Source: Candidatus Bathyarchaeota archaeon
GTDB taxonomy: Archaea; Thermoproteota; Bathyarchaeia; TCS64
Direction of reading: 5' to 3'
DNA length: 64,000 nt
Assembly (NCBI GenBank): GCA_016930055.1
Contig: JAFGHP010000091.1
Location: 2,187 to 66,186 of the forward strand
The notes under the pieces were generated by a model. The model did not search any database. It saw nothing but the letters and a program-made list of their open reading frames with translations, and had not been told where the DNA came from. Below are positions 5,547-36,970 of this stretch, piece by piece (the first letter of the stretch is position 1; each line of letters begins with the position of its first letter). A program made the translations under genes and the position numbers.

Positions 5547-5549
5547 GGG

Positions 5550-11227: not shown

Positions 11228-11280
11228 CTACATACACAACTTTTACTAACCAATAATAACATTTCATTTTATCGATTGAA

Positions 11281-17317: not shown

Positions 17318-17318
17318 A

Positions 17319-17888: not shown

Positions 17889-17889
17889 C

Positions 17890-19380: not shown

Positions 19381-20253
19381 TTAATTGTAAATAATTTCAC
19401 CATTTTTCGAAATAGTAGCTTTTGCATACCTTAGAGCCCAACAACTAATAACAACACCAACTGGTAAACTAGCAGGGTGTCTAGCAGTAAACTCAACATG
19501 TAAATCCAAAACAGTTGGACCTTCACCTAAACCCATCGCACCAATCTCAAGTTGATTCAATTTTGTTAAAAGTTCCTCCTCTATGGCAGCTATATTTGAA
19601 TTACTATTTCTTTTTTTGAATGGTTTTAATAATGCTTTTTTTGCTAGTAACATACAAAGATCTTCACTACCACCAACACCGACACCAACAAAATATGGGG
19701 GACATCCTAAAGAACCTGCATCTGCAACTGCTTCTATAATAAATTTTTTCACACCAACAATGCCTAAACCAGGTTTAATCATTTTATGCACAGATACATT
19801 ACTACTTCCTCCCCCTTTAGGCATAACAATAATCTCTAATTTATCTCCGGATACTAGCTCTAAATAAATTATGGGAATATTTCCATCTTCACTAGTATTA
19901 TCACCCGTATTACCTTTGAATATGTCTACAGAGTTCGGTCGAAGAGGAATTTTTTCAGTCGCTCTTCTTGTAGCTGTTCTAAGGATTTTTTTAAGGTTAG
20001 AACGAATCGGAAAATCGTCGCCTAAAGTTATAATATATGATATTACACCAGTATCTTGGCAAATAGGGCATTCAGATTTTTTTGCTAGTTCGGAATTTGT
20101 TATCATACTTCTTAATTGTGCTTGACCAACTGCTCCATTTGTTGTAGTCAATATTTTTTTTAATTCTTCTAAGAATTCCGTAGGTAGTTCAGTAACTGAT
20201 TTTTTTAATAATTCAACAGCCGTATCTTCAACTATTTTTTCAAGGTTAATCAT
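19381..20253 (-). CDS. fumA: Class I (Fe-S) fumarate hydratase / tartrate dehydratase, alpha subunit.
   Basis: The ECPICQDTG cluster motif is present, and the length and surrounding pattern fit the FumA N-terminal domain. Confidence 0.8.
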   Translation of the reverse strand: MINLEKIVEDTAVELLKKSVTELPTEFLEELKKILTTTNGAVGQAQLRSMITNSELAKKSECPICQDTGVISYIITLGDDFPIRSNLKKILRTATRRATEKIPLRPNSVDIFKGNTGDNTSEDGNIPIIYLELVSGDKLEIIVMPKGGGSSNVSVHKMIKPGLGIVGVKKFIIEAVADAGSLGCPPYFVGVGVGGSEDLCMLLAKKALLKPFKKRNSNSNIAAIEEELLTKLNQLEIGAMGLGEGPTVLDLHVEFTARHPASLPVGVVISCWALRYAKATISKNGEIIYN

Positions 20254-20846
20254 TTCATTTCACTGATCAGTTTTTCTTTTTTATTGTTTACATTACTCAG
20301 AATTTTTGCAGTAAGATTAGAACCATGTGAATCTATGGTGACAATCATTGGTCCAAAGTTTTCCACTTCATATACCCATAAACATTCAGGCATCCCCAAT
20401 TCGTCCAACCAATAATAATTTTTAACTTTTTTTATTCCCTGAGCTGCTAATAATGCGGCACCACCTGTAAAAGAACCATAAATACAACCAAATTTTCGAC
20501 ACGCATTAACTGTACGTTCACCCATACCGCCTTTCCCTATAAGTACTGAAGGACGATAATATTCAATAAAAAGATCTTCAAACATCTCCATTCTATCACT
20601 AGTTGTTGGACCAGCAGCTACAACTTTCCATTCATTTTCTGTTTTCTTCATTATTGGTCCACAATGAAAAATTGCTAATCCTTTAAATTCGATTGGTGAC
20701 CTATTTCCTGATTCGTATAGTTCAATTGCTTTTTTATGAGCTTCATCACGAGCCGTTACAATTGTTCCAGAAATAAAAAAAACATCACCAATTTCGAGTT
20801 TCCTTACTTCAAATTCAGGTATAGGAGTCATTAAATGATATTCCAT
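20250..20846 (-). CDS. fumB: Class I fumarate hydratase, beta subunit.
   Basis: GTIVTARDEAHKK...IFHCGP fits the beta subunit. It overlaps fumA by 4 nt, suggesting translational coupling. Confidence 0.8.
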   Translation of the reverse strand: MEYHLMTPIPEFEVRKLEIGDVFFISGTIVTARDEAHKKAIELYESGNRSPIEFKGLAIFHCGPIMKKTENEWKVVAAGPTTSDRMEMFEDLFIEYYRPSVLIGKGGMGERTVNACRKFGCIYGSFTGGAALLAAQGIKKVKNYYWLDELGMPECLWVYEVENFGPMIVTIDSHGSNLTAKILSNVNNKKEKLISEMK

Positions 20847-21081
20847 GTTTTAATCGTCAGAAATATAATTATACTTTAAGATTATGAGTTTTCTTATTAG
20901 AAAAGAAATTAAATTAATGGGATAACTGTTTTAAATCATTAATTGTCTATAAAGTCTACATAATTTTTAAGGATTTTTAATTATTTATTTTAGTTGAACA
21001 ACGTTAGAATATAATAAAGTTAATTGCTTACTCTTATTCTAATGAAAAAATATAAAATCTTGTAGTTAAAGGGGGTATAAG
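20847..21081. promoter_or_regulatory. Divergent AT-rich intergenic promoter region between fumB on the minus strand and the hdrC-like / frdABhdrA operon on the plus strand.
   Basis: 235 bp, about 80% AT. A GGGGGT Shine-Dalgarno sits 6 nt before the ATG at 21082. No specific TATA/BRE is assigned. Confidence 0.3.
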
Positions 21082-21501
21082 ATGTCTTCTGAAAACTCGG
21101 GGCAAATCCTTAAAATAAATGCGGAAAATAAAGAATTTAAAGAAAAAATTCAAGATTTAAGCGGAGAAAAAATTGACCTATGTTTCCAGTGTGGAGCATG
21201 TAGTTCAGGATGTCCAATGGTACAAGAGATGGATTATTTACCATCAAAAATTATTAGAATGTCTCAATTAGGTTTAAAAGAAGTTTTATCAAGTAAAACT
21301 ATTTGGGTCTGTACAACTTGCTTTAATTGTGAAGTTAGATGCCCAAGAGGAATAGACATAGCAAATGTAATGGAAGCTATTCGTCAGGTGGTTTTAAGAC
21401 AAAAGTTTGACAAAGTTAACATCGATATGCTTACACCAGAGGAACTTAGAGAACTCCCCCAAATTGCTATAGTCAGTAATCTTAGGAAACTTACAGCGTG
21501 A
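21082..21501 (+). CDS. HdrC-like 4Fe-4S dicluster protein.
   Basis: CFQCGACSSGCP and CTTCFNCEVRCP are the two cluster motifs. Confidence 0.75.
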   Translation: MSSENSGQILKINAENKEFKEKIQDLSGEKIDLCFQCGACSSGCPMVQEMDYLPSKIIRMSQLGLKEVLSSKTIWVCTTCFNCEVRCPRGIDIANVMEAIRQVVLRQKFDKVNIDMLTPEELRELPQIAIVSNLRKLTA

Positions 21502-21507
21502 TGTACT

Positions 21508-22410
21508 ATGAGGTTAGCATATTATCCAGGATGTACACTTAAAACAACTGCAAAAAGTTTTGATATCTCAACATTAGAAAGCTCTAAAACATTAGGTATT
21601 GATCTGATTGAACCTGAGAGGTGGAATTGCTGTGGAACAGTTCATGCCCTCTCTAAAGATGATGTTATGCACCATTTGGCACCAATCCGTAATTTACTCA
21701 GGATAGAAGAAATGAAAAAGACAGGTATTGTTGAAGAGAGTAAAGTAATAACTGTTTGTGCAATGTGTTACAATACCCTGAAAAGAGCTAATCTAGTTTT
21801 TAATTCTGATTCCGATAAAGTAAAAAAAATTAATGAAAACATGGAAAACGAATCTTCAGTTTATAACGGATCTGTACAAGTGGAGCATTTATTGGAAACA
21901 ATAAAACATCAAGGATGGGATAACCTTAGAAATAAGGTCAAAATTCCATTAAAAGATCTTAAAGTTGCACCATATTATGGATGCTTATTATTAAGACCAA
22001 GAGGTCTAGGCATAGATAATGCCGATAAACCATCAATAATGGAAGATATGATAAGAGCATTGGGTGCTGAACCCATAGACTTTGCTTATAAACAAAAATG
22101 TTGTGGAAGTTATCATACAGTATTTATGAAAGAAAGGGTAGCTGATTTAAGTTATAAAATATTAAATCAAGCAAAAATTGCTGGCGCAGAAATAATAGTT
22201 ACTGCTTGTCCTCTATGTGAATTTAATTTAAGTCATCGGCAAACAGAAATTATTAAAAATAGAAGTGAGTTTAAAGAATTCCCAGTTATATACTTCACCC
22301 AATTAATAGCTTTAGCATTAGGGCTAAAAGAGGATTCAATGGTTTTTGGGGAAAATAAAACTGACCCAAGACCTCTCTTCAAGTATAAGGGTTTTTTAAA
22401 GGAGATATAA
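21508..22410 (+). CDS. HdrB-like protein with two CCG domains; an SdhE/TfrB-type subunit.
   Basis: The two Cys-rich repeats are YYPGC...CCGT...CAMC and YYGC...CCGS...CPLCEF. Confidence 0.8.
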   Translation: MRLAYYPGCTLKTTAKSFDISTLESSKTLGIDLIEPERWNCCGTVHALSKDDVMHHLAPIRNLLRIEEMKKTGIVEESKVITVCAMCYNTLKRANLVFNSDSDKVKKINENMENESSVYNGSVQVEHLLETIKHQGWDNLRNKVKIPLKDLKVAPYYGCLLLRPRGLGIDNADKPSIMEDMIRALGAEPIDFAYKQKCCGSYHTVFMKERVADLSYKILNQAKIAGAEIIVTACPLCEFNLSHRQTEIIKNRSEFKEFPVIYFTQLIALALGLKEDSMVFGENKTDPRPLFKYKGFLKEI

Positions 22411-22412
22411 AA

Positions 22413-23102
22413 ATGTCAAAAAACAACAACGATTTTGTTACCATCTATGTAATGGGAAAAAAACAGAAAGTTCCAGCAGACCTCACAATAATGAAAGCAA
22501 TGGAATATGCAGGTCATCAATTTATTAGAGGATCAGGTTGTAGAGGAGGCTTCTGTGGAGCATGTGCAACAGTATATAGAATGAGGGGAAGTTACAAACT
22601 TCAAGGAGCCCTAGCTTGTCAGAAACAAGTTGAAGAGGGAATGATTATTGCTCAGATTCCTTTTAGTCCATCTGAAAAAATTACTTATAAATTAAATGAA
22701 ATTAAAGCAAATGCAAATACTTTCCTAGAATATTTCCCTGAAATTGCTCGATGTTTGTCATGCAATACTTGTACAAAAGCATGTCCTCAAGATATTATGG
22801 TAATGGATTATGTACAAGCAGCTCTTCGAGGCGACATCAAATTAGCTGCAAAGTTAAGTTTTGATTGTTTAGGATGTGGCTTATGTGCAATGAGGTGCCC
22901 TGCAGAGATTGTGCCTTATAATATTGGGCAATTAGCTAGAAGACTTGAATCAAAATATATTGAAGGACCAACAGAGCAAGTGCTTTCAAGATGTGAAGAA
23001 ATTAAAGAAGGAAAATATGACAAAGAAATTGAATCTCTCAAAAATGCTGACAAAGAGACTTTAATTAAACTCTATAATTCAAGGGAGATGAAAAATGAAT
23101 GA
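22413..23102 (+). CDS. frdB: Succinate dehydrogenase / fumarate reductase iron-sulfur subunit.
   Basis: The 2Fe-2S box is CRGGFCGACA. The 4Fe-4S boxes are CLSCNTCTKACP and CLGCGLCAMRCP. Confidence 0.85.
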   Translation: MSKNNNDFVTIYVMGKKQKVPADLTIMKAMEYAGHQFIRGSGCRGGFCGACATVYRMRGSYKLQGALACQKQVEEGMIIAQIPFSPSEKITYKLNEIKANANTFLEYFPEIARCLSCNTCTKACPQDIMVMDYVQAALRGDIKLAAKLSFDCLGCGLCAMRCPAEIVPYNIGQLARRLESKYIEGPTEQVLSRCEEIKEGKYDKEIESLKNADKETLIKLYNSREMKNE

Positions 23103-24751
23103 GTGATTTTAAAAGTGGTTATCCTGAATATATGCAAGAAAGCCTAAAAAAAGTATCAGAAACAAGATCTAGTAGATTTGGTAAAGAATTTACTCCAATG
23201 ACTGCAGAACAACGTATACAAATACTAGAAAAATTTCATCCAGATTGGAAACCTCAAATGAAACGAGGTTTAAAAATTGGGCCAAGTAAGGGTATGTTGA
23301 TACCTCATGAGGTAGCTGACATTATTGAATCTCATTCAATGATAAAACATGATGAAATTGATCTAACTAAAATCGATTATGATTTAGATGTTTTAATTAT
23401 TGGGGGAGGAGGGGCAGGTCTAAGTGCTGGCATATTAGCAAAAGAGTCAGGTATACCAGCTGATAAAATTCTACTTGTTCAAAAACTGAGACTAGGGGAC
23501 GCAAACAGTAAAATGGCTCAAGGCGGAATTCAAGCTGCAGACACCTCAATAGATAACCCTGCAATTCATTACCTTGATGTAATTGGGGGAGGACACTATG
23601 CAAATAAACCTGACCTTGTTGAAGCTTTAGTAAAAGACGCTCCGGATGTAATAAAATGGCATGAATCTCTAGGAGTTATGTATGATAAAAATCCTGATGG
23701 TACAATGTTAGAGATTGCGGGAGGAGGAACAAGCAGGAACAGAATGCACAGTTGCAAAGATTATACAGGGCTTGAACTCACTCGTGTGGTTCTTGATGAA
23801 TTTATTAATAAAGAAATAGGATACACAGAATTCACAAGTGCTGTAGAATTATTAATGGATGATAAAGAACAGGTTGCTGGAGCTGTATTATACGATTTAG
23901 AGACAAAAGAATATCATATCGCTAGATCAAAAAGCACAATTTTAGCTACAGGAGGTTTCGGTAGATTACACATCCAAGGATTTGCCACAACTAATCATTA
24001 TGGTGCAACTGGTGATGGTATAGTTATGGCGTATCGTACAGGCGCAATTTTAAGGGATTTGGATTCGACCCAATATCATCCTACAGGCGCAGCTTTTCCA
24101 GAACAAATTGTTGGACAACTAGCAACAGAAAAATTACGTGGTAGAGGAGCACAACCAGTTAACAAATATGGAGAACTTTTTGTATACCATTTAGAACCAA
24201 GAGACATCGAGTCAAGTAGCTATATTCGAGAATGTTATGAAAGAGATAACGGAATAGTTACTCCGACAGGAATGAAAGCAGTTTGGCTTGATACACCCAT
24301 GATAGAAAAAGTAAATGGATCTGGAACAATAGAAAGAGAGTTTGCTGCAATGTTCCGAAATTTTAACAGATGGGGAATAGATATTAGAAAAGAACCCATG
24401 CTTGTCTTTCCAACACTTCATTACCAGAACGGTGGAGTAGAAATAAACGCAAACACGGAAACAAATATTGCTGGGCTTCTTTGTGCGGGTGAAGTCTGCG
24501 GAGGAGTACATGGGAAAAACCGTTTAATGGGAAATAGTCAACTCGAAATCTATGTTTTTGGGCGTAGAGCGGGAAGAGCTGCTGCTAAAAGAGCTTCAAA
24601 AACCAATTTGGGTGAACTGAATCTTAACCATGTTAAAAGATATGATAAATGGCTTGAAGAAGCAGGTATAATTACTGAAAGAAAAAGTCCAATAATATTA
24701 CCTGAATATCGTGGCGAAAAAACACTGAGTCACCAGTTAAAAATTATGTAG
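23099..24751 (+). CDS. frdA: Fumarate reductase / succinate dehydrogenase flavoprotein subunit. It carries a roughly 95-aa N-terminal extension. The FAD site lacks the His that would link FAD covalently.
   Basis: VLIIGGGGAGLSAG is the FAD Rossmann motif. Ser-Lys-Met-AQGGI occupies the place of Ser-His-Thr. The active-site region HYLD...GGHY is present. The start overlaps frdB by ATGA. Confidence 0.85.
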   Translation: MSDFKSGYPEYMQESLKKVSETRSSRFGKEFTPMTAEQRIQILEKFHPDWKPQMKRGLKIGPSKGMLIPHEVADIIESHSMIKHDEIDLTKIDYDLDVLIIGGGGAGLSAGILAKESGIPADKILLVQKLRLGDANSKMAQGGIQAADTSIDNPAIHYLDVIGGGHYANKPDLVEALVKDAPDVIKWHESLGVMYDKNPDGTMLEIAGGGTSRNRMHSCKDYTGLELTRVVLDEFINKEIGYTEFTSAVELLMDDKEQVAGAVLYDLETKEYHIARSKSTILATGGFGRLHIQGFATTNHYGATGDGIVMAYRTGAILRDLDSTQYHPTGAAFPEQIVGQLATEKLRGRGAQPVNKYGELFVYHLEPRDIESSSYIRECYERDNGIVTPTGMKAVWLDTPMIEKVNGSGTIEREFAAMFRNFNRWGIDIRKEPMLVFPTLHYQNGGVEINANTETNIAGLLCAGEVCGGVHGKNRLMGNSQLEIYVFGRRAGRAAAKRASKTNLGELNLNHVKRYDKWLEEAGIITERKSPIILPEYRGEKTLSHQLKIM

Positions 24752-24759
24752 GGATTAAA

Positions 24760-27132
24760 ATGTCTTACAGCCCTAAAATCGGAGTTTGGTTATGTGAATG
24801 TGGCGGAAATATAGGTGATGTAGTAGACACTCAAAAAGTAATGGATGAGATAAAAAATCAAGTTCAATTTGTAAAACGTGAACGATACTTATGTAGTAAA
24901 CCAAGTATAGACACAATTAAAGAGATAATCAAAAACGAGAAACTAGAAAGAATAGTTTTAGCTTGTTGTACTCCAAAAATGCATAGAGAAACTTTTTTAA
25001 AAAATGTGATAGAAGAAGGAATAAACCCAGCGTTTCTCGAAATAGTAAATGTTCGTGAACAATGTAGCTGGGTTCATAAAAAAGATCCTGAAGGAGCTAC
25101 TTTGAAAAGTCTGGATCTTATAAAAGGAGCTATATCTCGAATTAAGGAATCAAAAGAGTTACACACAAAACAAATGCATGTCACACAAGAAGTACTAGTC
25201 ATTGGAGGAGGAGTTGCAGGTATTACAACTAGTCTAAGGTTAAGTGAATATGGGCTGAAAGTTCATTTAATTGAAAAAAGTCCAAGCATTGGGGGGCATA
25301 TGATCCAATACCCCAAAGTGTTCCCAACTCTAGACTGCAGTCAATGCATTTTGACACCAAAAATGGCTAGTATAGCTCAGAGCAGTAATATCAATCTCAA
25401 AACATATTCTGAAGTAAAAGAAGTTACCGGGTCACCGGGTAATTTTAATGTAAAAATTTGGGTTAAACCAAGAGGTGTAGATGTCGAAAAATGTATAGGA
25501 TGTGGGGAATGTAGTAGAGTCTGTCCTGTAGAAGCTCCTTCGGAATATGATGAAAGAATTGGAAAAAGGAAAGCAGCCTACATTCCTTTTCCTCAAAGCG
25601 TACCTAGCGTTTATACAATTGATTTTGATAATTGTGTCAGATGTGGTCTTTGTGCAGCGAATTGCCCTCGAGAAGCAATTGACCTCAATGATGAAGGGAA
25701 AATTGAGGAATTAAATGTTGGTGCAATAGTCTTAGCAACAGGTTTTGAATTATTTGATTTAACAAATTTAGTCAATTATGGTTATGGAAGATATCCTAAT
25801 GTAATTACTAGTCTAGAAATGGAACGTATACTAGATGTTAATGGCCCAACAGGAAGCCAGTTGATTGTTCCTAAGACAGGTAGACAAGTTAAAAGTGTTG
25901 TATATGTTTTATGTGCTGGAAGTAGGGACACAGAGGTTGGTCAACCATACTGTAGTAGAGTCTGTTGTCTTTACAGCATGAAGCAAGCTCAACTATTAAG
26001 AGATAGAGGAGTTGATGTCTGGATAAATTATATCGATATACGTTCTCCAGGACGAAGATACGAAGAATTTTATCGTTTAACGCAAGAAAAAGGTGTAAAT
26101 TTTGTTAAAGGAAAAGTAACAGAAATTGAACCAAATGGAGAACAAGTATTAGTAAGATCAGAGGAAATGATGTTAAATAAAATGATGGAAAATGTTGTTG
26201 ACTTAGTAGTTCTTTCACCACCAATCATTAGTTCAGAAGATACAGCTAAGCTATCTGAAATGCTTAAAGTACCAATAGATGAAGACAAGTTCGTTTTAGA
26301 AAAACATCCTAAACTTGATCCAGTGGCTACTAAAAGAGACGGTGTATTTGCAGCTGGTGCAGTTATTGGACCCAAAGACATTCAGTCAACAACTGCAGAA
26401 GCAGAAGGAGCTGCCATGAAAGTAGTTAATTTTCTAGGTATGGCAAGAATAATTGAAGCAAATAAGGCATATTTAGCTAGAAATGAACTATGCGATGGGT
26501 GTGGTAAATGTAAAAAAATATGCCCAGAATCAGCAATTACAATTGTTGAGGATAAACCGGTTTTTAATGAGATTACCTGTTCTGGTTGTGGGGCATGTAT
26601 ACCTGAATGCCCACAAAACGCTCTTGATCAAGAAGGTTTAACTGACATCCAAATTCAAACCCAAATTAAAGGCATATTAAATGATACGAAAGCACCACTA
26701 AAAATAATTGCATTTGTCGAAAAAGAAGTTGTTTACACTGCAATTGATTTAGCAGGACTAGCCAGATTAAGTTATGCTAGTAGTATAAGAATAATTCCTA
26801 TGCCTTCTTTAGCTAGAATCAAATTAGAGCATATACTCTATGCTTTTTCTTATGGTGCAGATGGTGTAATGATGTTAGAAGCTCCTATACATGAAGGCCC
26901 ATATGGGAATGCTCATAAAATTTCAGAGGAAAGAGCTGAAGAATATAAATGGGCTTTAGAAGATTATGAGATAGATAGTAGTAGATTATGGTATAGTAGA
27001 GTATATGTTCCTGATTGGAGAAAACTAGAACGAATTTTTAACACGTTTCATGAAATGGTAGAATCGGAAGACCCAATCGAAGGAAACCAAAGAGGAAAAA
27101 TACTAAAAAATTTATTAAAAATAAAAGATTAA
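24760..27132 (+). CDS. hdrA: Heterodisulfide reductase subunit A-like flavoprotein with a C-terminal cysteine-less MvhD-like domain.
   Basis: An N-terminal Cys domain (IGVWLCECGG) is followed by an FAD domain (VIGGGVAGITT). An inserted ferredoxin and a C-terminal ferredoxin (CDGCGKCKKICP, CSGCGACIPECP) are present. The tail aligns to MvhD with all Cys substituted. Confidence 0.85.
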   Translation: MSYSPKIGVWLCECGGNIGDVVDTQKVMDEIKNQVQFVKRERYLCSKPSIDTIKEIIKNEKLERIVLACCTPKMHRETFLKNVIEEGINPAFLEIVNVREQCSWVHKKDPEGATLKSLDLIKGAISRIKESKELHTKQMHVTQEVLVIGGGVAGITTSLRLSEYGLKVHLIEKSPSIGGHMIQYPKVFPTLDCSQCILTPKMASIAQSSNINLKTYSEVKEVTGSPGNFNVKIWVKPRGVDVEKCIGCGECSRVCPVEAPSEYDERIGKRKAAYIPFPQSVPSVYTIDFDNCVRCGLCAANCPREAIDLNDEGKIEELNVGAIVLATGFELFDLTNLVNYGYGRYPNVITSLEMERILDVNGPTGSQLIVPKTGRQVKSVVYVLCAGSRDTEVGQPYCSRVCCLYSMKQAQLLRDRGVDVWINYIDIRSPGRRYEEFYRLTQEKGVNFVKGKVTEIEPNGEQVLVRSEEMMLNKMMENVVDLVVLSPPIISSEDTAKLSEMLKVPIDEDKFVLEKHPKLDPVATKRDGVFAAGAVIGPKDIQSTTAEAEGAAMKVVNFLGMARIIEANKAYLARNELCDGCGKCKKICPESAITIVEDKPVFNEITCSGCGACIPECPQNALDQEGLTDIQIQTQIKGILNDTKAPLKIIAFVEKEVVYTAIDLAGLARLSYASSIRIIPMPSLARIKLEHILYAFSYGADGVMMLEAPIHEGPYGNAHKISEERAEEYKWALEDYEIDSSRLWYSRVYVPDWRKLERIFNTFHEMVESEDPIEGNQRGKILKNLLKIKD

Positions 27133-28777: not shown

Positions 28778-31777
28778 ATGAAACCTGTCCTAGTTATTGG
28801 CGGTGGCATCACTGGTATCCAGACTTCTTTGGATCTAGCAAATAGAGGAATTAAAGTTCACCTTATAGAAAAAACATCAAGTATAGGAGGAGTAATGTCC
28901 CAACTTGATAAAACTTTTCCTACAAACGATTGCTCAATGTGTATTCTAGCTCCCAAAATGATCGAGTGTTCCCGAAATGAAAACATAAAGATTCACACTA
29001 TGAGTGAAGTCATTGAAATAAAAGGGGAAGCAGGGGATTTTAAAGTAAAAATAATCGAACACCCTAGGTCTGTTGATGTCGAGAAATGCACTGGTTGCGG
29101 TATTTGTTCAGAGAAATGCCCCATTAAAGTAAGAAGCGAGTATCAATCTGGAACAGGTTATCGTAAAGCAATATATTTACCATTTCCACAAGCTGTTCCA
29201 CTTATCGCAACTATTGATAGAACTAATTGTTTATGGTTTAGTAAAGAGATTTGTCGAATATGTGAAAAATTTTGTCCATCTAAGGCAATTAATTATGATC
29301 AAGTAGAAACTATCTCTGAAATTGAAGTTGCTAGTATTGTTTTAGCACAAGGAGCTGAAGCTTTTAATCCAGAGGTATTAACTGAGTATGGTTATGGGGT
29401 TTATCCCAACGTAGTAACTTCTTTGGAATTTGAACGCATTATGAGTGCAACTGGTCCTTTTAATGGTCAAATCTTACGTTCAAGTGATAAAATTAAACCA
29501 AAAAAAATTGCTTTTTTACAATGTATTGGTAGCAGAGATAGTAGAGTAGGGAATTCGTATTGCAGTAGTGTTTGTTGTATGTATGCAATTAAAGAAGCAG
29601 TTATAGCTCAAGAACATGATCCTAATTTAGATACCACAATTTTCTTTATTGATATTAGGGCATTTGGTAAAGAATTTGAAGACTATTACACTCAAGCTGA
29701 AAAGGGAAATAAAATTAGATTTATAAGAAGTAGAATATCAAGTATCGAAGAAATTCCAGAAACAAAAAATCTTGAAATATCATATGAATCAAATGGAGAA
29801 ATTAAGAAAGAAATTTTTGATATGATAATTTTAAGCGTAGGTTTAGAACCTCCTAAAGAATTGAATAATTTTTCACTATCTATTGATTTAAAGTTAAATA
29901 AATATGGATTTGTACAAACAGAGAATTTTTCGCCAGTCGATACTTCATTACCAGGAATATATGTTGCTGGTGTTTTAAGCGGACCAAAAGATATTCCAGA
30001 TAGTATTTCTCAAGCATCAGCAGCAGCTGTAAGAGCTGCAAGTAATTTAAGGATAGAATATGAAGAAACTAATTATTCAATTTATCAAGAAAAAAATGTT
30101 GAAGATAAAATTCCTAGAATAGGTGTATTTGTTTGTCATTGTGGTACAAATATTGGTAGCGTTGTAGATGTCCCTAGTGTCGTTGAATATGTAAAAAATC
30201 TTCCAAATGTTATATACGCTGAAGAAAATTTATTCACATGCAGCCAAGACACGCAGAAAAAGATAATTCATTTAATTAAAGAACATGAACTGAACAGAAT
30301 TGTAGTAGCAAGTTGTTCACCAAGAACTCATGAAGCTCTTTTCCAAGCTACTTTACAGGAAGCAGGGTTAAATCCATATTTATTTGAAATGGCGAATATC
30401 CGAGATCAATGTAGCTGGGTACACATGCATGAACATGAGAAAGCCACTCAGAAAGCTAAAGATCTTGTAAGAATGGCAATATCTAAAGCTAGGTTATTAA
30501 AACCGTTAACAAAACCTGTAACAAATGTAACACAATCTGCTTTAGTAATTGGTGGAGGCATTAGTGGTATTACTGCTGCTCTGGAGATTGCTGACCAAGG
30601 TTATTTAGTCCATTTAGTAGAAAAAGAAGGTGAATTGGGCGGTAATTTTAAGAAAATAAAATATCTGCCTTCAGGTGATGATCCTGAAAAGTTCCTGAAA
30701 AATTTAAAATCACAAGTTAGTGAAAATAAAAATATAATAACGCATCTTAATTCAAAAATTAATAGTATTTTCGGTTATTTAGGAAATTTTGAATCTGTAA
30801 TCAGTAAAGATAAAGAAACAACCCGGATAAAACATGGCGTAGTTATTGTAGCAACGGGTGGTCTAGAATATAAACCCAAAGAATATCTATATGGTACCCC
30901 AGGTATTATAACCCAATTAGAATTTGAAGAATTATTAAGCAAAAGCTACAAACCAGAAAGCATTGTAATGATACAATGTGTGGGTAGCCGGTGTGAAGAA
31001 CGTAGTTATTGTAGTCGTATATGTTGTACAGGTGCAATAAGTAATGCTTTAAAAGCTAAGGAATTAAATCCTGATTCTGAAATATTTATTTTATTTAAAG
31101 ATATTAGAACCTATGGCTTCAAAGAAGATTATTATAGAGAAGCTGCAGAAAAGGGAATAATTTTCATTAGATATGATGACGAAAATAAACCAGAAGTAAG
31201 TAATGATGGTAAAATAAAAATTAATGTTTTAGATCCTGTACTTAAACAAAAACTAGTTATAAACCCTGAAGTATTAGTTTTAAGCTCAGCAATTATACCA
31301 CAAGAAGATTCAAAAGAATTATCAGGGATTTTAAAAGTGCCACTTAGTAAAGATGGCTTCTTTTTAGAAGCTCACATGAAGTTAAGGCCTCTTGATTTCG
31401 CTACTGAAGGAATATTTTTGTGTGGCCTTGCCCATGCACCAAAAACAATTGATGAATGTATTAGTCAAGCTCTTGGTGCTGCAGCTCGCTCCATAACAAT
31501 TCTAAGTAAAAAAGAAATTGAAACTGAAGGAGTCATAGCGATAGTAGATGAAAAAATTTGTTGTGGATGTCAATTATGTCTAAATGTCTGTGAATATAAT
31601 GCAATTGAGATTAGAAATATAGAGGGTAAAATGCGAAGCCATATTATTCCTGAAATTTGTAAAGGATGTGGAGTATGTGCTGCAACATGCCCGAGTGGAG
31701 CTATTACAATTGGGCATTTCACCGATGATGAGATTTTAAGTCAAATAAAAAATGCTTTCAAAGAGGTAATTGCATGA
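28778..31777 (+). CDS. hdrA: Tandem-duplicated HdrA-like flavoprotein of 999 aa.
   Basis: There are two FAD Rossmann motifs, LVIGGGITGIQT and LVIGGGISGITA. An internal HdrA N-domain (IGVFVCHCGTN) and ferredoxin boxes are present. Confidence 0.85.
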   Translation: MKPVLVIGGGITGIQTSLDLANRGIKVHLIEKTSSIGGVMSQLDKTFPTNDCSMCILAPKMIECSRNENIKIHTMSEVIEIKGEAGDFKVKIIEHPRSVDVEKCTGCGICSEKCPIKVRSEYQSGTGYRKAIYLPFPQAVPLIATIDRTNCLWFSKEICRICEKFCPSKAINYDQVETISEIEVASIVLAQGAEAFNPEVLTEYGYGVYPNVVTSLEFERIMSATGPFNGQILRSSDKIKPKKIAFLQCIGSRDSRVGNSYCSSVCCMYAIKEAVIAQEHDPNLDTTIFFIDIRAFGKEFEDYYTQAEKGNKIRFIRSRISSIEEIPETKNLEISYESNGEIKKEIFDMIILSVGLEPPKELNNFSLSIDLKLNKYGFVQTENFSPVDTSLPGIYVAGVLSGPKDIPDSISQASAAAVRAASNLRIEYEETNYSIYQEKNVEDKIPRIGVFVCHCGTNIGSVVDVPSVVEYVKNLPNVIYAEENLFTCSQDTQKKIIHLIKEHELNRIVVASCSPRTHEALFQATLQEAGLNPYLFEMANIRDQCSWVHMHEHEKATQKAKDLVRMAISKARLLKPLTKPVTNVTQSALVIGGGISGITAALEIADQGYLVHLVEKEGELGGNFKKIKYLPSGDDPEKFLKNLKSQVSENKNIITHLNSKINSIFGYLGNFESVISKDKETTRIKHGVVIVATGGLEYKPKEYLYGTPGIITQLEFEELLSKSYKPESIVMIQCVGSRCEERSYCSRICCTGAISNALKAKELNPDSEIFILFKDIRTYGFKEDYYREAAEKGIIFIRYDDENKPEVSNDGKIKINVLDPVLKQKLVINPEVLVLSSAIIPQEDSKELSGILKVPLSKDGFFLEAHMKLRPLDFATEGIFLCGLAHAPKTIDECISQALGAAARSITILSKKEIETEGVIAIVDEKICCGCQLCLNVCEYNAIEIRNIEGKMRSHIIPEICKGCGVCAATCPSGAITIGHFTDDEILSQIKNAFKEVIA

Positions 31778-32190
31778 CGGATTTTGAGCCAAAAATTATT
31801 GGTTTTTTATGCAATTGGTGTAGTTACGCTGGAGCAGATCTTGCAGGAGTAAGTAGGTTTCAATATCCACCAAATATGAGACAAATCAGAGTAATGTGTA
31901 GTGGACGAATTCATCCAAGTTTTATCCTTCAAGCTTTCAAAGAAGGAGCAGATGGAGTGCTTGTTGCTGGTTGCCATACACCAAACGATTGCCATTATAT
32001 TTCTGGAAATTTTAAAACAGAACGCCGTGTAGCTATTCTAAAAAAATTATTAGAACAATTAGGCTTAGAACCAGAAAGGCTTAGACTTGAATGGATTAGC
32101 GCGTCTGAAGGCGAAAAATTTTCCAAAACAGTATTAGAAATGACTAATGAGCTCCGAAAACTTGGACCAAGCCCAATCAAAGAGGAGTAA
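31774..32190 (+). CDS. mvhD: Methyl-viologen-reducing hydrogenase delta subunit.
   Basis: IIGFLCNWCSYAGADLAG...CSGRI...GCHTPNDCHY is the MvhD signature. Confidence 0.85.
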   Translation: MTDFEPKIIGFLCNWCSYAGADLAGVSRFQYPPNMRQIRVMCSGRIHPSFILQAFKEGADGVLVAGCHTPNDCHYISGNFKTERRVAILKKLLEQLGLEPERLRLEWISASEGEKFSKTVLEMTNELRKLGPSPIKEE

Positions 32191-32192
32191 AA

Positions 32193-32696
32193 ATGACTGA
32201 AATAATTTTTAATGAAGATACAAAACGTTTCAGAGATAGTATCCTAAAAATTGGTGGGGCTGAAAGGCTCATGTTATGTTATCAGTGTGGTACATGCACT
32301 AATGATTGCCCGGTAGCCAAACGTATTGAAGAGTTCCGTCCCAGAAATATTGCTAGATTAGCTATGTTTGGCCAGAAACAACAATTGTTTTCAAGCGATC
32401 TTTTGTGGCTTTGTGCAGGATGTTATACATGTTATGAACACTGTCCCCAAAAAGTACATGTTTCTGAGATAATATCAGCACTAAGAAGATTAGCATTTAT
32501 TGAAGGAAAAATACATCCAACAATAAAATCTCTGTTAACAGCATTATCGCGTTATGGTTATATTATGGAAATAGGAGAATTTGAAAATGAACTTAGAGAA
32601 GAAGAAAATTTACCACCAGCACCTGAACCTGCAATTAATGAAATCTCAACAATAATGGAAAAAACTGGAACATTAAAAAAAGTTGGAGGGAACTAA
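32193..32696 (+). CDS. hdrC: Heterodisulfide reductase subunit C.
   Basis: CYQCGTCTNDCP and CAGCYTCYEHCP are the two cluster motifs. Confidence 0.85.
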   Translation: MTEIIFNEDTKRFRDSILKIGGAERLMLCYQCGTCTNDCPVAKRIEEFRPRNIARLAMFGQKQQLFSSDLLWLCAGCYTCYEHCPQKVHVSEIISALRRLAFIEGKIHPTIKSLLTALSRYGYIMEIGEFENELREEENLPPAPEPAINEISTIMEKTGTLKKVGGN

Positions 32697-33567
32697 TTTT
32701 CTAAAGTATGCGTTTTTTGTAGGATGCACAACTCTTGGTCGTCTCCCTGGATACGAAAAATCTACTCGTAAACTTGCTGCAACACTTGGAATAGAATTGG
32801 TTGACATGCCTAATTCAAGTTGTTGTGGTACAACATATATGGAAGGAGTCGATGAATTAACTGCTTTAAGTTTAGCAGCAAGAAACATATGCATTGCAGA
32901 GGATATGGGCTTAAACATTTTAACAATATGTAATGGATGTACTGAAACTTTAACAAAAACTAATAAAATATTAAAAGAAAATCCTGAAAAATTAAAAAAA
33001 GTAAATGAAATACTTAAAGATACAGGAAGAGAATTTAAAGGAACAGTTGAAATAAAGCATCTATTAAGAATTTTAAAAGAAGACTATGGTTTAGAAAATT
33101 TAAAGAAAGCTATTGTTAAACCCTACAAAAGTCTAAAGGTAAGCACCCATTATGGATGCCATTTACTGAGACCATCAGATGTCATGAGTTATGATGATCC
33201 CAATCAACCAACTTCAATGGATGAAATCATTGAAATAACAGGGGCAAAAAGCGTTCAATATCCCGGAAAAATGGATTGCTGTGGAGGCCCGATTATGGGA
33301 ATAAGAGAAGACGTAACTTGGGCTATGGGACTAGAAAAGATTGAGGTTGTTAACAAATATGCCCAAGCACTGGTCACATCATGTCCCTTCTGTTTTATTT
33401 CCTATGAAAGAGCTCAATTGATGATTGACAACCAAAAAAAGTTACCAATTATACATCTCCCACAAATTTTGGGACTCAGCTTAGGTTTATCTGAAGAGGA
33501 TATAGGATTAAGGGATAACAAAATAGATTCTTCTTTTTTAAAAAATAATTTGGAGGCTCGAAAATAA
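32683..33567 (+). CDS. hdrB: Heterodisulfide reductase subunit B, with two CCG domains.
   Basis: The two repeats are FFVGC...SCCGT...CNGC and THYGCH...DCCGG...CPFCF. Confidence 0.85.
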   Translation: MEGTNFLKYAFFVGCTTLGRLPGYEKSTRKLAATLGIELVDMPNSSCCGTTYMEGVDELTALSLAARNICIAEDMGLNILTICNGCTETLTKTNKILKENPEKLKKVNEILKDTGREFKGTVEIKHLLRILKEDYGLENLKKAIVKPYKSLKVSTHYGCHLLRPSDVMSYDDPNQPTSMDEIIEITGAKSVQYPGKMDCCGGPIMGIREDVTWAMGLEKIEVVNKYAQALVTSCPFCFISYERAQLMIDNQKKLPIIHLPQILGLSLGLSEEDIGLRDNKIDSSFLKNNLEARK

Positions 33568-34532
33568 ATAAATTAAACTTTGGTTTTTACTGGGCTGCAA
33601 GTTGTGGAGGATGCGAAATCGCAGTTTTAGATATAGATGAAAAAATTCTTGAAATATTGGAGATAGCGGATATTGTTTTCTGGCCAGTTGCCATGGATAT
33701 CAAATATAAAGAAGTTGAAAATATGTTGGATGGTTACATTGATGTATGTTTCTTCAATGGAGCAATTCGAAATTCAGAACAAGAATATCTAGCAAAATTA
33801 TTGAGAAGGAAATCAAAAATCTTGATCGCTTTCGGAGCTTGTGCACAGTTAGGAGGAATCCCAGGATTAGCAAACATATTTAGTGCAGAAGAAATCTTCG
33901 AAACAATATATCATAGCACTCCTTCAACCAACAATACTTTAAAAATTGAACCGAATGAATCAACAAAAATTGTCGAAGGCATATTAGAGCTACCAACATT
34001 TTATGATGAAGTTAAACCTCTCGATAAAATTGTGCAAGTTGATTATTATATTCCAGGATGTCCACCACCACCTAAATTGATTATTCAAGCAGTAGAAGCA
34101 ATAAGATCGAATAAACTTCCTCCAAAAGGGAGTATTCTTGCACCAGAAATAGCGGTTTGTGATGAATGCCCTAGAAAAAAAGAAGATAAAAAAATTTCAG
34201 AGATTAAAAGGGTGTTAGATTTTGTACCAGATTCTGAAAAATGTCTTTTAGAACAGGGTATAATATGCATGGGACCAGCAACTAGGGGTGGATGCGATGC
34301 TAAATGTATTCAAGCAAACATGCCATGTACAGGATGTGGTGGACCTTGTCCAAACATAGAGGAGCAAGGAGCAGCAATGATTAGTGCTCTGAGTACGGTT
34401 TTAGGAATAGGAGAAGAAAAAGACGAAAATTATTCAGTTAATAATTTAATTTCGCAACTCAAGGATCCATTAGGAACTTTCTATAAGTATACTTTACCAT
34501 CATCAATAATTAAAAAAAGGTATAAAAAATGA
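33564..34532 (+). CDS. mvhG: [NiFe] hydrogenase small subunit of the F420-non-reducing Mvh type. The start codon appears to be ATA, so the coordinate is uncertain.
   Basis: The N-terminal NFGFYWAASCGGCEIAVLD box lies upstream of the TTG the ORF tool used. Distal cluster motifs CMGPATRGGCDAKC and CTGCGGPCP are present. Confidence 0.8.
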   Translation: MNKLNFGFYWAASCGGCEIAVLDIDEKILEILEIADIVFWPVAMDIKYKEVENMLDGYIDVCFFNGAIRNSEQEYLAKLLRRKSKILIAFGACAQLGGIPGLANIFSAEEIFETIYHSTPSTNNTLKIEPNESTKIVEGILELPTFYDEVKPLDKIVQVDYYIPGCPPPPKLIIQAVEAIRSNKLPPKGSILAPEIAVCDECPRKKEDKKISEIKRVLDFVPDSEKCLLEQGIICMGPATRGGCDAKCIQANMPCTGCGGPCPNIEEQGAAMISALSTVLGIGEEKDENYSVNNLISQLKDPLGTFYKYTLPSSIIKKRYKK

Positions 34533-35986: not shown

Positions 35987-35989
35987 TTT

Positions 35990-36430
35990 TTGCGAGGACT
36001 AGTTATTGGAATAGGAAACATTCTAAGAACAGATGATGGTGTTGGATTACATACTTTAAAAAAAATAAAGAAGATTCTACCAGACTTTGATACCGTTGAT
36101 GTAGGTTTAGGGAGTATAGAAATTCTTGATCATATACAGGGTTATGATTTGATTTTCATTATTGATGCAATTGAAACTGGTGGAAAACCGGGTACAGTGT
36201 ATAAAATAGATCTTTCAAAAAATCAAGTTCCCCCAGAAATAAATTATAGTCATGGAATCGATATAGTTACAACATTAAAATTAGGGCAATTATTTGTAGA
36301 TAAACTCCCAAAAATAATTTTGTTAGCTGTAGAAGCTGAAGATGTTTTAACATTCAGTGAAGAATTAACACCGAAAGTAAAAAAAGCAATCAAAGAAATT
36401 ATAAAAGAAATTAATAATTATAGTAAATAA
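35990..36430 (+). CDS. Hydrogenase maturation endopeptidase of the HycI/FrhD/HyaD family.
   Basis: GIGNILRTDDGVG fits, the size fits, and it sits directly after the large subunit. TTG start. Confidence 0.75.
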   Translation: MRGLVIGIGNILRTDDGVGLHTLKKIKKILPDFDTVDVGLGSIEILDHIQGYDLIFIIDAIETGGKPGTVYKIDLSKNQVPPEINYSHGIDIVTTLKLGQLFVDKLPKIILLAVEAEDVLTFSEELTPKVKKAIKEIIKEINNYSK

Positions 36431-36538: not shown

Positions 36539-36970
36539 ATGGTAAGAATCGAAGGCAATGAATTCCCTGATGATCTTTATTATCACAGAGAACATATGTG
36601 GATTAAAAATGAAGGTTCAATGATTCGAGTCGGATACAATGATTGGGCTCAACAAACCGCCGGAAAAATTTTAAGTCTTAAAGCCAGAAAAGCTGGAGCA
36701 AATATTGATGCAGGAAAAACATTAGGCAGCATTGAAAGTGGAAAATGGGTAGGAAGTTTAAAACTACCAGTTTCTGGTGAGTTAGTACAAATAAATCAAG
36801 AAGTACTTAAAGATCCTTCACTGATTAACAAAGATCCTTACGGTGAAGGTTGGGTTGCATTAATAAAACCCTCAAAATTAGCTGAGGAAATAAAAAACCT
36901 AATTCCTGGAAAAGATAAAGCAACCTTAGAGGCATGGCTTAAAGAAGAAAAAGTGAAGAATAAGCAATAG
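36539..36970 (+). CDS. GcvH-like lipoyl-carrier protein.
   Basis: Aligns along its length with glycine-cleavage H protein. The lipoyl-Lys region is SIESGKWVGSLKLPVSGELV, and the C-terminus contains DPYGEGW. Confidence 0.8.
   Translation: MVRIEGNEFPDDLYYHREHMWIKNEGSMIRVGYNDWAQQTAGKILSLKARKAGANIDAGKTLGSIESGKWVGSLKLPVSGELVQINQEVLKDPSLINKDPYGEGWVALIKPSKLAEEIKNLIPGKDKATLEAWLKEEKVKNKQ

Follow-up and report, generated by a model that had tools for sequence, protein, structure and literature searches.

Thiol:fumarate reductase (TfrAB) was reportedly described from Methanothermobacter by Heim et al. in 1998, and in its TfrB subunit FrdB-, HdrC- and HdrB-like parts are naturally fused into one chain. 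In heterodisulfide reductases (Hdr) that are coupled to a hydrogenase, the [2Fe-2S] cluster of MvhD serves as the relay between the hydrogenase and HdrA. Here we analyse a five-gene operon encoding HdrC-like, HdrB-like, FrdB-like, FrdA-like and HdrA proteins, located in a 64,000-nucleotide stretch of Candidatus Bathyarchaeota contig JAFGHP010000091.1 (hereafter the window, which sets the numbering of all positions).

Several published systems come close to this combination. HdrA2 of the HdrA2B2C2 complex takes electrons directly from F420H2 or reduced ferredoxin, with no separate donor module, and the motif CX2CX25CX24CX4C in its MvhD domain is that of a [2Fe-2S] cluster (PMC5296606). According to a proposal by Rubin-Blum et al. 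2019, electrons from NADH are bifurcated by an HdrABC-FlxABCD-KorABCD-TfrAB complex to TfrAB and to ferredoxin/2-oxoglutarate:ferredoxin oxidoreductase (OGOR) (PMC6315080), and co-expression of the hdr-flx-kor-tfr genes was subsequently reported by Mitchell et al. 2024 (PMC11636981). Hdr-coupled bifurcating fumarate reduction is therefore a concept already proposed, for tubeworm symbionts, and never demonstrated. FrdABCDE of Hydrogenobacter thermophilus (Miura et al. 2008), which two further papers summarise (PMC13147460, PMC10052474), is a soluble, NADH-dependent enzyme of five subunits; no other soluble Fe-S fumarate reductase with several subunits from the reductive tricarboxylic acid (rTCA) cycle is known to have been characterised biochemically. 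Furthermore, Adam et al. 2022 noted a Tfr in synteny with an Hdr-like complex, the Culexarchaeia paper describes an SdhA adjoining HdrA2B2C2 and GcvH (PMC9723716), Sifarchaeia genes have been annotated in the literature as thiol:fumarate reductase, and distant FrdAB relatives in rTCA clusters have been called “TfrAB”. A 2026 survey still lists the electron donor of AB-type/Tfr-like fumarate reductases as open (PMC13147460).

We found that the linkage of frdA to hdrA is kept across archaea and bacteria in rearranged gene orders, with the catalytic and cluster-binding residues of the subunits conserved. On this evidence, the chances appear about even that the five proteins make up a soluble fumarate reductase, independent of quinones, in which HdrA would be wired through the HdrC-like, HdrB-like and FrdB proteins to FrdA.

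Conservation of the Frd-Hdr linkage

The operon consists of five co-directional open reading frames (ORFs) on the + strand at 21082-27132 (Table 1). Our ORF check returned exactly the coordinates given in an earlier annotation made by a model from the letters alone (the sequence-only reading), which had described five tightly packed genes. The intergenic gaps are 6, 2, -4 and 8 nucleotides, followed by 72 nucleotides before the malic enzyme gene, and the negative gap is an ATGA overlap in which the frdB stop and the frdA start share 4 nucleotides, indicating translational coupling. Pfam and NCBIfam profile searches bore out the five gene identities proposed at that stage (HdrC-like, HdrB-like, FrdB, FrdA and HdrA) as well as the fumarase, with alpha and beta genes, divergent upstream and the malic enzyme downstream, while none of the five operon proteins reaches a curated NCBIfam equivalog cutoff. 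The suggestion of a cytoplasmic enzyme without a membrane anchor agrees with the absence of transmembrane-like segments from all five proteins, the top 19-residue hydropathy (1.66) being that of a Rossmann strand of FrdA. The host had been taken for an Asgard archaeon. This origin was rejected because the exact proteins, deposited at NCBI under generic names only (MBN1683593-97), sit in a Candidatus Bathyarchaeota metagenome-assembled genome (MAG), and the host is accordingly a member of the Bathyarchaeia.

We scanned 185,579 species-representative genomes with peptide patterns of the FrdA subfamily. This returned 128 relatives, of which we examined the best 80 loci together with four long contigs, scoring every ORF against the window proteins. 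Forty-four loci from about 10 phyla were informative, with at least 3.2 kb of sequence upstream and at least 2.6 kb downstream. Within 10 kb of frdA, HdrA is encoded in 42 of these 44 loci (in 32 directly downstream of frdA), FrdB in 43, the HdrB-like and the HdrC-like proteins in 41 each, fumarase in 35 and malic enzyme in 30. The frdA-hdrA linkage that had been singled out from one contig is thus strongly conserved in both archaea and bacteria.

At least five different gene orders were found. Bathyarchaeia and the Asgard Borr- and Sifarchaeota share the order fumAB (divergent) / hdrC-hdrB-frdB-frdA-hdrA / malic enzyme. Bipolaricaulota and a MAG labelled Thermotogaceae (L070) have hdrA-mvhD-mvhG-mvhA-hdrC-hdrB-frdB-frdA-(2-oxoacid:ferredoxin oxidoreductase alpha/beta)-fumAB-malic enzyme, and another Thermotogae MAG (L078) has hdrA-hdrC-hdrB-frdB-frdA-malic enzyme-fumAB-mvhGA. 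The order in Fermentibacteria and WOR-3 is hdrA-hdrC-hdrB-frdB-frdA. Thermoproteota and Korarchaeia carry hdrC-hdrB-hdrA-mvhD and, a few kb on, a fused HdrD-like gene (dicluster plus two CCG domains) followed by frdB-frdA; in Thermoproteota this fused HdrD-like protein is encoded directly upstream of frdB. Because the linkage survives this much rearrangement across about 10 phyla, we regard it as strong evidence that frdA and hdrA are functionally coupled and not neighbours by chance.

The two-subunit 2-oxoacid:ferredoxin oxidoreductase lies between frdA and fumAB and was annotated by Pfam in L071 only (L071:11669-13917), with an equal-sized gap at the same position in L055, L059, L060 and L070. 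Clusters of the L071 type hold a ferredoxin consumer inside an Mvh-Hdr-Frd cluster, echoing the kor-tfr-flx-hdr cluster of the tubeworm symbionts.

Two observations concern individual survey loci. One WOR-3 contig (L082:2-4377 and 5478-11659) carries two frdB-frdA copies, one directly after hdrA-mvhD and the other after hdrA-hdrC-hdrB, and may represent a natural experiment on alternative wirings. Three loci filed under Desulfaltia, Patescibacteria and Krumholzibacteriaceae MAGs (L019, L043 and L054) encode FrdA proteins 68-74% identical to that of the window in the exact Bathyarchaeia gene order, and are probably mis-binned Bathyarchaeia contigs.

Subunits and their cofactor sites

The three small subunits carry fully conserved cluster ligands. 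Solved HdrB structures (9sfi_C, 5e-37; 8rvv_B; 5odc_B) match the HdrB-like protein along its whole length, and it contains the two CX31-39CCX35-36CX2C motifs that identify HdrB and ligate non-cubane [4Fe-4S] clusters. All ten of its cluster cysteines (C9, 41, 42, 84, 87, 159, 198, 199, 234 and 237) are present at 100% in 66 homologs, as are the eight of the HdrC-like protein (C34, 37, 40, 44, 77, 80, 83 and 87) in 65 homologs and the 12 ligand cysteines of the FrdB-like protein in 71 homologs, the latter arranged as a plant-type [2Fe-2S] motif and two CxxCxxCxxxCP motifs. The best NCBIfam matches of the HdrC-like protein are HdrC (84.5 bits, cutoff 160) and QmoC. For the HdrB-like protein the HdrB model (TIGR03288) scores 153.5 bits against a cutoff of 345, and the top match is SdhE (NF042965) with 163.6 bits against a cutoff of 500. 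A type E succinate:quinone oxidoreductase (SQR) was considered as an identity and rejected, both on this SdhE score and on the missing histidine for covalent binding of flavin adenine dinucleotide (FAD).

The HdrB-like protein shares just 31% identity with the canonical HdrB of the window, whose gene lies 10 kb further downstream, and all 64 Frd-adjacent HdrBs, from every phylum surveyed, are nearer to the former than to the latter. It is best placed in a distinct “Frd-type” HdrB subfamily. Furthermore, the three small subunits tile the TfrB profile (NF004898), with FrdB at 20-182, the HdrC-like protein at 118-220 and the HdrB-like protein at 262-482; their scores of 33, 36 and 49 bits stay below a cutoff of 385 that is set for a single polypeptide, the architecture being equivalent but split. 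Because of this tiling, hdrC-hdrB-frdB-frdA is best described as a split, divergent counterpart of thiol:fumarate reductase. With 64 of 64 HdrBs of the Frd type and the cluster cysteines fully conserved, we consider this four-gene module to be the evolutionary unit, to which HdrA and the Mvh genes are variably attached.

In the NCBIfam ranking for FrdA, TfrA comes first, followed by SdhA/FrdA and NadB, and a match to PF00890 (FAD_binding_2, 7.6e-66) places the protein in the SdhA/FrdA superfamily of fumarate/succinate flavoproteins. TfrA itself (NF004900) scores 313.3 bits against a cutoff of 718, residues 94-518 covering profile positions 6-423 of 546, and a Pfam search found no C-terminal SdhA helical domain (Succ_DH_flav_C, PF02910) in FrdA. 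We aligned 29 sequences of the family spanning archaeal and bacterial phyla. Asn136 (nucleotides 23504-23506), within D-A-N-S-K-M-A-Q-G-G, is invariant and aligns with His44, the covalent-FAD histidine of E. coli FrdA. The sequence-only reading had Ser-Lys-Met replacing this histidine; the loss is real, but the position has to be corrected, Asn136 being the aligned residue and Ser-Lys-Met the next three. With no histidine at this site, the FAD is predicted to be non-covalently bound. The fumarate-site residues H327, T329, E344, R347, R368, H441 and R475 are invariant in the same alignment; they make up the catalytic set expected of the superfamily (the HPT-His, the Thr-Glu hinge, the proton-shuttle Arg, here R368, the HY-His and the NRL-Arg).

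An AlphaFold2 (AF2) model of FrdA from a deep alignment reached a predicted local distance difference test score (pLDDT) of 94.5; it replaced a model from a shallow alignment (23 sequences, at least 70% identity), which had a pLDDT of 53 and was discarded. A Foldseek search with the model returned E. coli FrdA (1kf6_A) first, with a TM score of 0.70, then Shewanella flavocytochrome c3 (Fcc3), and NadB lower. Since the catalytic residues are invariant, the fold matches fumarate reductases, frdB is coupled, and fumarase and malic enzyme are syntenic, the data support a fumarate/succinate-type flavoprotein rather than NadB. An identity as L-aspartate oxidase (NadB) was rejected separately: TIGR00551 scores 260.8 bits, short of the membership cutoff of 452.75, frdB is coupled to frdA and present in 43 of the 44 loci, and NadB ranks lower in the fold search.

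In place of the missing helical domain, FrdA has two regions outside the FAD domain, both rich in invariant residues. The N-terminal extension (residues 1-96, nucleotides 23099-23386) corresponds to the one of about 95 residues noticed initially. It is kept across phyla, is confidently modelled by AF2, and in a natural FrdB-FrdA fusion (P0122) stands between the Fe-S part and the FAD domain, and it is therefore genuine coding sequence. Searched alone against Pfam, it gave only a sub-threshold match to Gluconate_2-dh3 (20.5 bits, cutoff 23.4). The C-terminal tail (residues 531-550, nucleotides 24689-24751) had no Pfam match; P531, L534, P535, E536, Y537, R538, G539, T542, H545 and L547 are invariant among close homologs, and it is the sole low-confidence segment of the AF2 model (pLDDT below 50). 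Conservation combined with low pLDDT suggests that the tail may be a partner-binding peptide that folds on another subunit. Four longer FrdA-like proteins are uninformative on Hdr: P0168 is an FMN_bind fusion, P0178 a tandem-FAD fusion, P0173 a classical SdhA-SdhB fusion and P0241 a methyltransferase fusion.

HdrA had been called full. This holds for the core, whose residues 4-643 align to residues 11-656 of 8rvu_a (1.3e-179) and also to 5odc_A. The core comprises the N-domain, the thioredoxin-reductase-like FAD domain, the inserted ferredoxin domain and the C-terminal ferredoxin domain, contains all 28 cysteines of the protein, and keeps six [4Fe-4S] ligand motifs in the alignment to solved HdrA, which is the domain set of a bifurcating HdrA. 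In the printed alignment it is, by eye, about 50% identical to the structurally characterised bifurcating HdrA. What had been overlooked is a C-terminal FlpD/MvhD-like domain of about 145 residues that has no cysteine, as against five in the true MvhD of the window at 31774-32190 (86 against 187 bits with Pfam). HdrA2 (NF040770) is the best NCBIfam match, at 829 bits against a cutoff of 1100, and with none of the five motif cysteines the protein falls outside the HdrA2 subclass.

The domain lacks cysteines in all of the about 45 Bathyarchaeia homologs and in the Asgard homologs examined. It keeps two in Fermentibacteria and WOR-3 and five in L078, where mvhGA lie in the cluster; a stand-alone five-cysteine MvhD replaces the fused domain in Bipolaricaulota and Thermoproteota. 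Without cysteines the domain cannot hold the [2Fe-2S] relay from a hydrogenase, and we predict that it is a cluster-free structural remnant. H2 delivered through MvhD is therefore an unlikely donor here, though a complete Mvh-Hdr cluster adjoins the operon.

Electron path and competing explanations

From the gene content, cofactor motifs, catalytic residues, conserved synteny and coherence of the module, we infer the physical complex, the order of electron flow, the reaction direction, the donor and any bifurcation, and every functional statement beyond motifs and synteny is meant in this sense. It is probable that the five proteins form a complex. Electrons would pass from the FAD and [4Fe-4S] chain of HdrA to the two clusters of the HdrC-like protein, then by way of the HdrB-like protein, with its two non-cubane clusters, and FrdB, with its three clusters, to the non-covalent FAD of FrdA, where fumarate would be reduced to succinate. 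The fumarate could be formed from malate by the neighbouring fumarase, and the malate from pyruvate and CO2 by malic enzyme, which together would make up a reductive TCA branch. Each junction has a precedent by analogy, HdrA-HdrC-HdrB in the HdrABC structures and HdrB-type CCG to FrdB/FrdA in Tfr, and the tiling of the TfrB profile by three window proteins likewise favours the HdrA to HdrBC-like to FrdAB path put forward in the sequence-only reading.

Electron bifurcation by such an Hdr-Frd complex is plausible. Fumarate (about +30 mV) would take the role of the heterodisulfide of coenzymes M and B (CoM-S-S-CoB), with ferredoxin as the second redox partner at HdrA. In the related bacteria the donor would most likely be H2 via MvhADG, driving the co-reduction of fumarate and ferredoxin. 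In this Bathyarchaeon a different donor is invoked because the MvhD relay domain has lost its cluster: either a hydride carrier (F420H2 or NAD(P)H) would act at the HdrA flavin, as in HdrA2B2C2, with bifurcation, or reduced ferredoxin alone would supply the electrons, without bifurcation.

As a member of the Bathyarchaeia, the host most likely lacks CoM and CoB. We tentatively extend the proposal, as something possible that we would not call probable, to a widespread HdrABC class without CoM/CoB for which fumarate, reached via FrdAB, would be the physiological high-potential acceptor. Its members would be flavin-based bifurcating fumarate reductases that need no thiol cofactor and are driven by H2 in Bipolaricaulota and Thermotogae and by NADH in symbionts. 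In Bathyarchaeia and part of the Asgard archaea the complex would have been rewired, the MvhD relay having decayed to a docking domain without a cluster, and a new donor mode would apply, in which a hydride carrier acts on the HdrA flavin or the [2Fe-2S] domain of FrdB stands in for MvhD.

These proposals bear on what HdrABC-type complexes reduce in non-methanogens that lack CoM-S-S-CoB, and on the electron donor of anchorless AB-type/Tfr-like fumarate reductases in rTCA and anaerobic organisms. The operon could explain fumarate reduction in quinone- and coenzyme-M-free anaerobes, perhaps with a gain of reduced ferredoxin. Bathyarchaeia are among the most abundant sediment archaea. If fumarate reduction is coupled to that of ferredoxin, they would gain an extra energy-conserving, ferredoxin-generating step feeding the Wood-Ljungdahl pathway, as would some Asgard archaea and several candidate bacterial phyla; without such coupling, the operon would still define the reductive TCA branch of quinone-free archaea. 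Small, soluble, cytoplasmic subunits encoded contiguously make an unusually clean target for heterologous expression, and the natural variants with and without a functional MvhD and hydrogenase are built-in comparisons.

Several findings weigh against the five-subunit fumarate reductase. The cysteine-less MvhD-like domain removes the sole donor route with structural precedent and leaves three-partner bifurcation here without an evident donor. In a complete Bathyarchaeota genome (CP070640, L001:9618-14015) frdA-hdrA-malic enzyme is intact, but FrdB is truncated to a 126-residue dicluster half without the [2Fe-2S] domain, and HdrC/HdrB-like genes and fumarase were not found within 10 kb of frdA; this hints at direct contact between FrdAB and HdrA, or at missing parts encoded elsewhere. 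The FrdB-like protein has no significant similarity to SdhB chains in the PDB, so that homology to SdhB is not demonstrable beyond the cluster motifs. Gln141 of FrdA occupies the site that holds Glu49 in E. coli FrdA and Gln50 in SdhA. It is presumably an SdhA-type residue, a weak indication; this Glu49/Gln50 distinction between FrdA and SdhA is said to go back to Maklashina et al. in 2006. Finally, the full conservation of both HdrB non-cubane motifs fits a real thiol/disulfide substrate equally well.

The last point leads to a thiol shuttle, which we regard as unlikely and yet as deserving serious weight. Under this hypothesis the coupling would run via a thiol, diffusible or bound to a protein, and not a continuous Fe-S wire: a split thiol:fumarate reductase would oxidise a dithiol at the HdrB-like clusters, and HdrA, of this operon or of the Mvh-Hdr system, would re-reduce the disulfide. 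The dithiol could be that of two small-molecule thiols, of DsrC-like cysteines or of GcvH in its dihydrolipoyl form; a variant with three ports would have a dithiol of about -290 mV as the bifurcation donor to both fumarate and ferredoxin. Both CCG motifs, which in HdrB make up the site of disulfide catalysis, are conserved at 100%, and with a cysteine-less MvhD the HdrB site is left as the sole candidate for a third port. In Thermoproteota loci a Tfr-like HdrD-frdB-frdA unit occurs alongside a separate hdrC-hdrB-hdrA-mvhD set. An HdrB may accept a lipoyl protein as its dithiol substrate, as in the sHdr systems of sulfur oxidisers; GcvH and lipoate ligase genes lie just past the Mvh-Hdr cluster, and in Culexarchaeum GcvH directly follows frdA (L057:4041-4442). 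GcvH was suggested as an Hdr substrate by the Culexarchaeia authors (PMC9723716), and TfrB is a biochemical precedent, cited in PMC8163825 and PMC6315080. However, GcvH is tied to frdA in only 1 of the 84 loci, the single HdrBC pair of the Bathyarchaeia operon would need to fill both roles, Bathyarchaeia have no known thiol cofactor, and our calculation shows that bifurcation from a thiol with a CoM/CoB-like potential of -140 mV to fumarate and ferredoxin is endergonic at standard potentials.

Distinctly less likely is a plain ferredoxin:fumarate oxidoreductase. The hydrogenase port would have been lost in Bathyarchaeia and Asgard archaea, and HdrA would be the ferredoxin-docking entry to a linear, non-bifurcating chain, giving organisms without quinones and CoM/CoB a fumarate reductase that serves anabolism in their reductive TCA branch. 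This would match the two obvious ports, ferredoxin and fumarate, that remain next to a cysteine-less MvhD, and the rTCA context of relatives; the family is also very abundant and highly conserved in Bathyarchaeia, which suggests a housekeeping role. HdrA2B2C2 carries out ferredoxin-dependent heterodisulfide reduction without a third partner (PMC5296606). Such a chain would nevertheless waste about 0.5 V, and a simple wire has no need of a complete bifurcation-type HdrA with six clusters and an FAD domain, while the bacterial relatives retain Mvh and a five-cysteine MvhD in the cluster.

The direction of the reaction bears on a third alternative. Profile searches found distant FrdA branches (about 36-45% identity) that keep the N-terminal extension in Gammaproteobacteria, Chromatiales, symbionts, Nitrospirota and Thermodesulfobacteriota, some of them annotated “L-aspartate oxidase” by the Joint Genome Institute (JGI). 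A Nitrospirota MAG has aclAB-frdB-frdA-sucCD and a lucinid symbiont (L085) has mdh-frdB-frdA-NuoF-like-korAB, both rTCA clusters; no Hdr gene was seen within the recovered L085 fragment. Because distant relatives sit in rTCA clusters and the Bipolaricaulota clusters include a ferredoxin-dependent 2-oxoacid oxidoreductase, we favour fumarate reduction in the reductive branch from pyruvate/malate to fumarate and succinate.

A confurcating succinate dehydrogenase running the other way is quite improbable. It would oxidise succinate (+30 mV), a thermodynamically demanding step, under the pull of reduced ferredoxin oxidation. The acceptor would be one of middle potential, for instance a disulfide, F420 or NAD(P)+, or protons reached through Mvh in the bacteria, and the route would lead from succinate through fumarate and malate to pyruvate. 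Fumarase and a decarboxylating malic enzyme make this a sensible oxidative route, Hdr-type reactions are all reversible in principle, and Gln141 is presumably SdhA-type, a weak argument. The Culexarchaeia authors favoured succinate oxidation (PMC9723716). Set against these points are the ATP-citrate lyase and 2-oxoglutarate:ferredoxin oxidoreductase in the reductive TCA clusters of distant members and the ferredoxin-consuming oxidoreductase of the Bipolaricaulota clusters. By our calculation, H2 formation from succinate and ferredoxin also needs an extremely low H2 partial pressure, and no donor or acceptor port is apparent in Bathyarchaeia.

Meaningless adjacency, with FrdA an L-aspartate oxidase or other enzyme of unsaturated acids and hdrA from an unrelated system, is hardly credible: the scores of all five proteins below equivalog cutoffs and the JGI label of some distant members fit it, but the linkage persists across about 10 phyla in rearranged orders, frdB and frdA are translationally coupled and occur as a natural fusion, the syntenic genes are fumarase, malic enzyme and rTCA genes and not nadA or nadC, and NadB ranks below fumarate reductases in the fold search.

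Genomic surroundings and comparison with known systems

The features of the region are listed in Table 1. The divergent intergenic region is presumed to be a shared promoter region, and a GGGGG Shine-Dalgarno-like motif precedes the hdrC-like gene. Downstream, the 72-nucleotide spacer contains a T-run after the hdrA stop codon and ahead of the malic enzyme gene, which is probably a separate transcription unit. A scan of the window for sigma-70 promoters and intrinsic terminators was at chance (52 against 54.5 expected, and 7 against 6.4), these being bacterial models unsuited to an archaeon.

Table 1. Coordinates and supporting matches of the operon and the genes around it
Feature	Position	Strand	Basis
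Class I (Fe-S) fumarate hydratase alpha	19381..20253	-	Pfam Fumerase 2e-85; NCBIfam PRK06246 290.6 bits > cutoff 276
Class I fumarate hydratase beta	20250..20846	-	Pfam Fumerase_C 1.7e-43; divergent from operon
Divergent intergenic region, 235 nt, AT-rich	20847..21081	.	Read from sequence
HdrC-like 2x[4Fe-4S] ferredoxin subunit, 139 aa	21082..21501	+	Pfam Fer4_8, Fer4_17
HdrB-like subunit, two CCG domains, 300 aa	21508..22410	+	Pfam CCG x2
FrdB-like iron-sulfur subunit, 229 aa	22413..23102	+	Weak Fer2 + Fer4 dicluster
FrdA-like flavoprotein, 550 aa, FAD and capping domains	23099..24751	+	Pfam FAD_binding_2 at residues 97-480
HdrA core, residues 1-644	24760..26691	+	Residues 4-643 align to solved HdrA
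C-terminal MvhD/FlpD-like domain of HdrA, no cysteines	26692..27132	+	Pfam FlpD 86 bits
Malic enzyme, 445 aa	27205..28542	+	Pfam malic, Malic_M
Canonical hdrA(999 aa)-mvhD-hdrC-hdrB-mvhG-mvhA-hycI cluster, separate Hdr/hydrogenase system	28778..36430	+	Pfam, NCBIfam matches

The 999-residue HdrA of the neighbouring Mvh-Hdr cluster (28778-31777) is a tandem or permuted form, less canonical than the Frd-linked HdrA, with the domain order thioredoxin-reductase-like with inserted ferredoxin, HdrA N-domain, second thioredoxin-reductase-like without insert, and C-terminal ferredoxin. Just past this hydrogenase and protease cluster, the stretch 36539-38061 holds the genes for a lipoyl protein of the glycine-cleavage H type (GcvH, 36539-36970) and for a lipoate-protein ligase (LplA). 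Upstream of fumarase (16658-19332, - strand) the window encodes a B12-binding radical SAM enzyme together with two small membrane proteins, and downstream of the hydrogenase region (39177-41033, - strand) an aldehyde:ferredoxin oxidoreductase. These neighbours fit a ferredoxin-centred anaerobic metabolism, with no tie to the operon established.

Elsewhere in the window, RNA polymerase subunit A is a single ORF of 1286 residues with Rpb1 domains 1-5 (58508-62368, - strand) and is not split into A' and A''; the adjacent ORF (62369-63946, - strand) has RpoB domains 5-7 only and runs toward the window end. The stretch at about 44000-52000 has a GC content of 25-29%, against about 33% elsewhere, and contains an ORF of 1858 residues (45520-51096, - strand) whose domains are DUF4011, AAA_11/AAA_12 (helicase) and REase_MTES_1575 (nuclease); a mobile or defence island is one possible reading of this stretch.

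In our literature searches we found no paper that describes the operon or any Hdr-Frd enzyme biochemically. The earlier remark that the architecture was not characterised holds for biochemistry, but genomic proposals close to it exist (Rubin-Blum et al. 2019 and others). So far as the searches reach, the contiguous archaeal five-gene operon is undescribed. The same holds for two subfamilies, namely Frd-type HdrBC and the FrdA with N-terminal extension, Asn136 and no C-terminal domain, for how widely the Frd-Hdr(-Mvh) linkage occurs and for the graded degeneration of the MvhD relay.

Among known systems, membrane-bound complex II (types A-D) differs from the operon proteins, in which Asn136 stands for the histidine, transmembrane segments are absent and FrdB has two CxxCxxCxxxCP motifs. 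Type E SQR/MfrABE (SdhABE) likewise pairs an HdrB-like CCG protein (SdhE) with SdhAB, and type E SdhB is reported to have a second [4Fe-4S] cluster where a [3Fe-4S] cluster is usual, as in the motif of the window FrdB. Unlike type E SQR/MFR, the operon has no covalent-FAD histidine, no SdhF or membrane subunit and no evidence of a quinone site, and adds HdrC-like and HdrA proteins. By description, H. thermophilus FrdABCDE shares with it the five subunits, the solubility and the independence from quinones; in the accounts given by the papers cited above, the FrdABCDE genes are dispersed, the donor is NADH via a dedicated flavoprotein, and HdrA is not among the reported subunits.

The tubeworm-symbiont proposal likewise has HdrA bifurcating to a Tfr-like fumarate reductase and to ferredoxin/OGOR, and the gammaproteobacterial FrdA-like proteins make up a remote branch of the same family, at about 45% identity, and carry the N-terminal extension. 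Unlike the window operon, that proposal is bacterial, with NADH via FlxABCD as donor and interspersed genes, and is a genomic and transcriptomic proposal only. HdrA2B2C2 of Methanosarcina acetivorans (Yan, Wang & Ferry 2017, PMC5296606) shares the fusion of HdrA to a C-terminal MvhD domain, but HdrA2 keeps the [2Fe-2S] cysteines that the window domain lacks, and the complex reduces CoM-S-S-CoB and has no Frd module.

With MvhADG-HdrABC (5ODC, 8RVU) the operon has in common the cluster motifs of the HdrA core, the HdrC-like and the HdrB-like proteins, and the bacterial relatives add mvhD, mvhG and mvhA. It differs in adding FrdAB, presumably the terminal acceptor module in place of CoM-S-S-CoB, in having HdrB and HdrC of a separate subfamily and a fused, cysteine-less MvhD-like domain, and in containing no hydrogenase gene. 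Finally, like TfrAB of Methanothermobacter, the predicted enzyme is soluble and anchorless and joins an FrdA-type flavoprotein and FrdB-like clusters to an HdrB-type double-CCG protein. Unlike TfrA, the window FrdA is without the C-terminal domain (profile positions of about 424-546) and bears the 95-residue N-terminal extension; unlike TfrAB, the TfrB equivalent is split into three polypeptides, and the HdrA gene is part of the operon.

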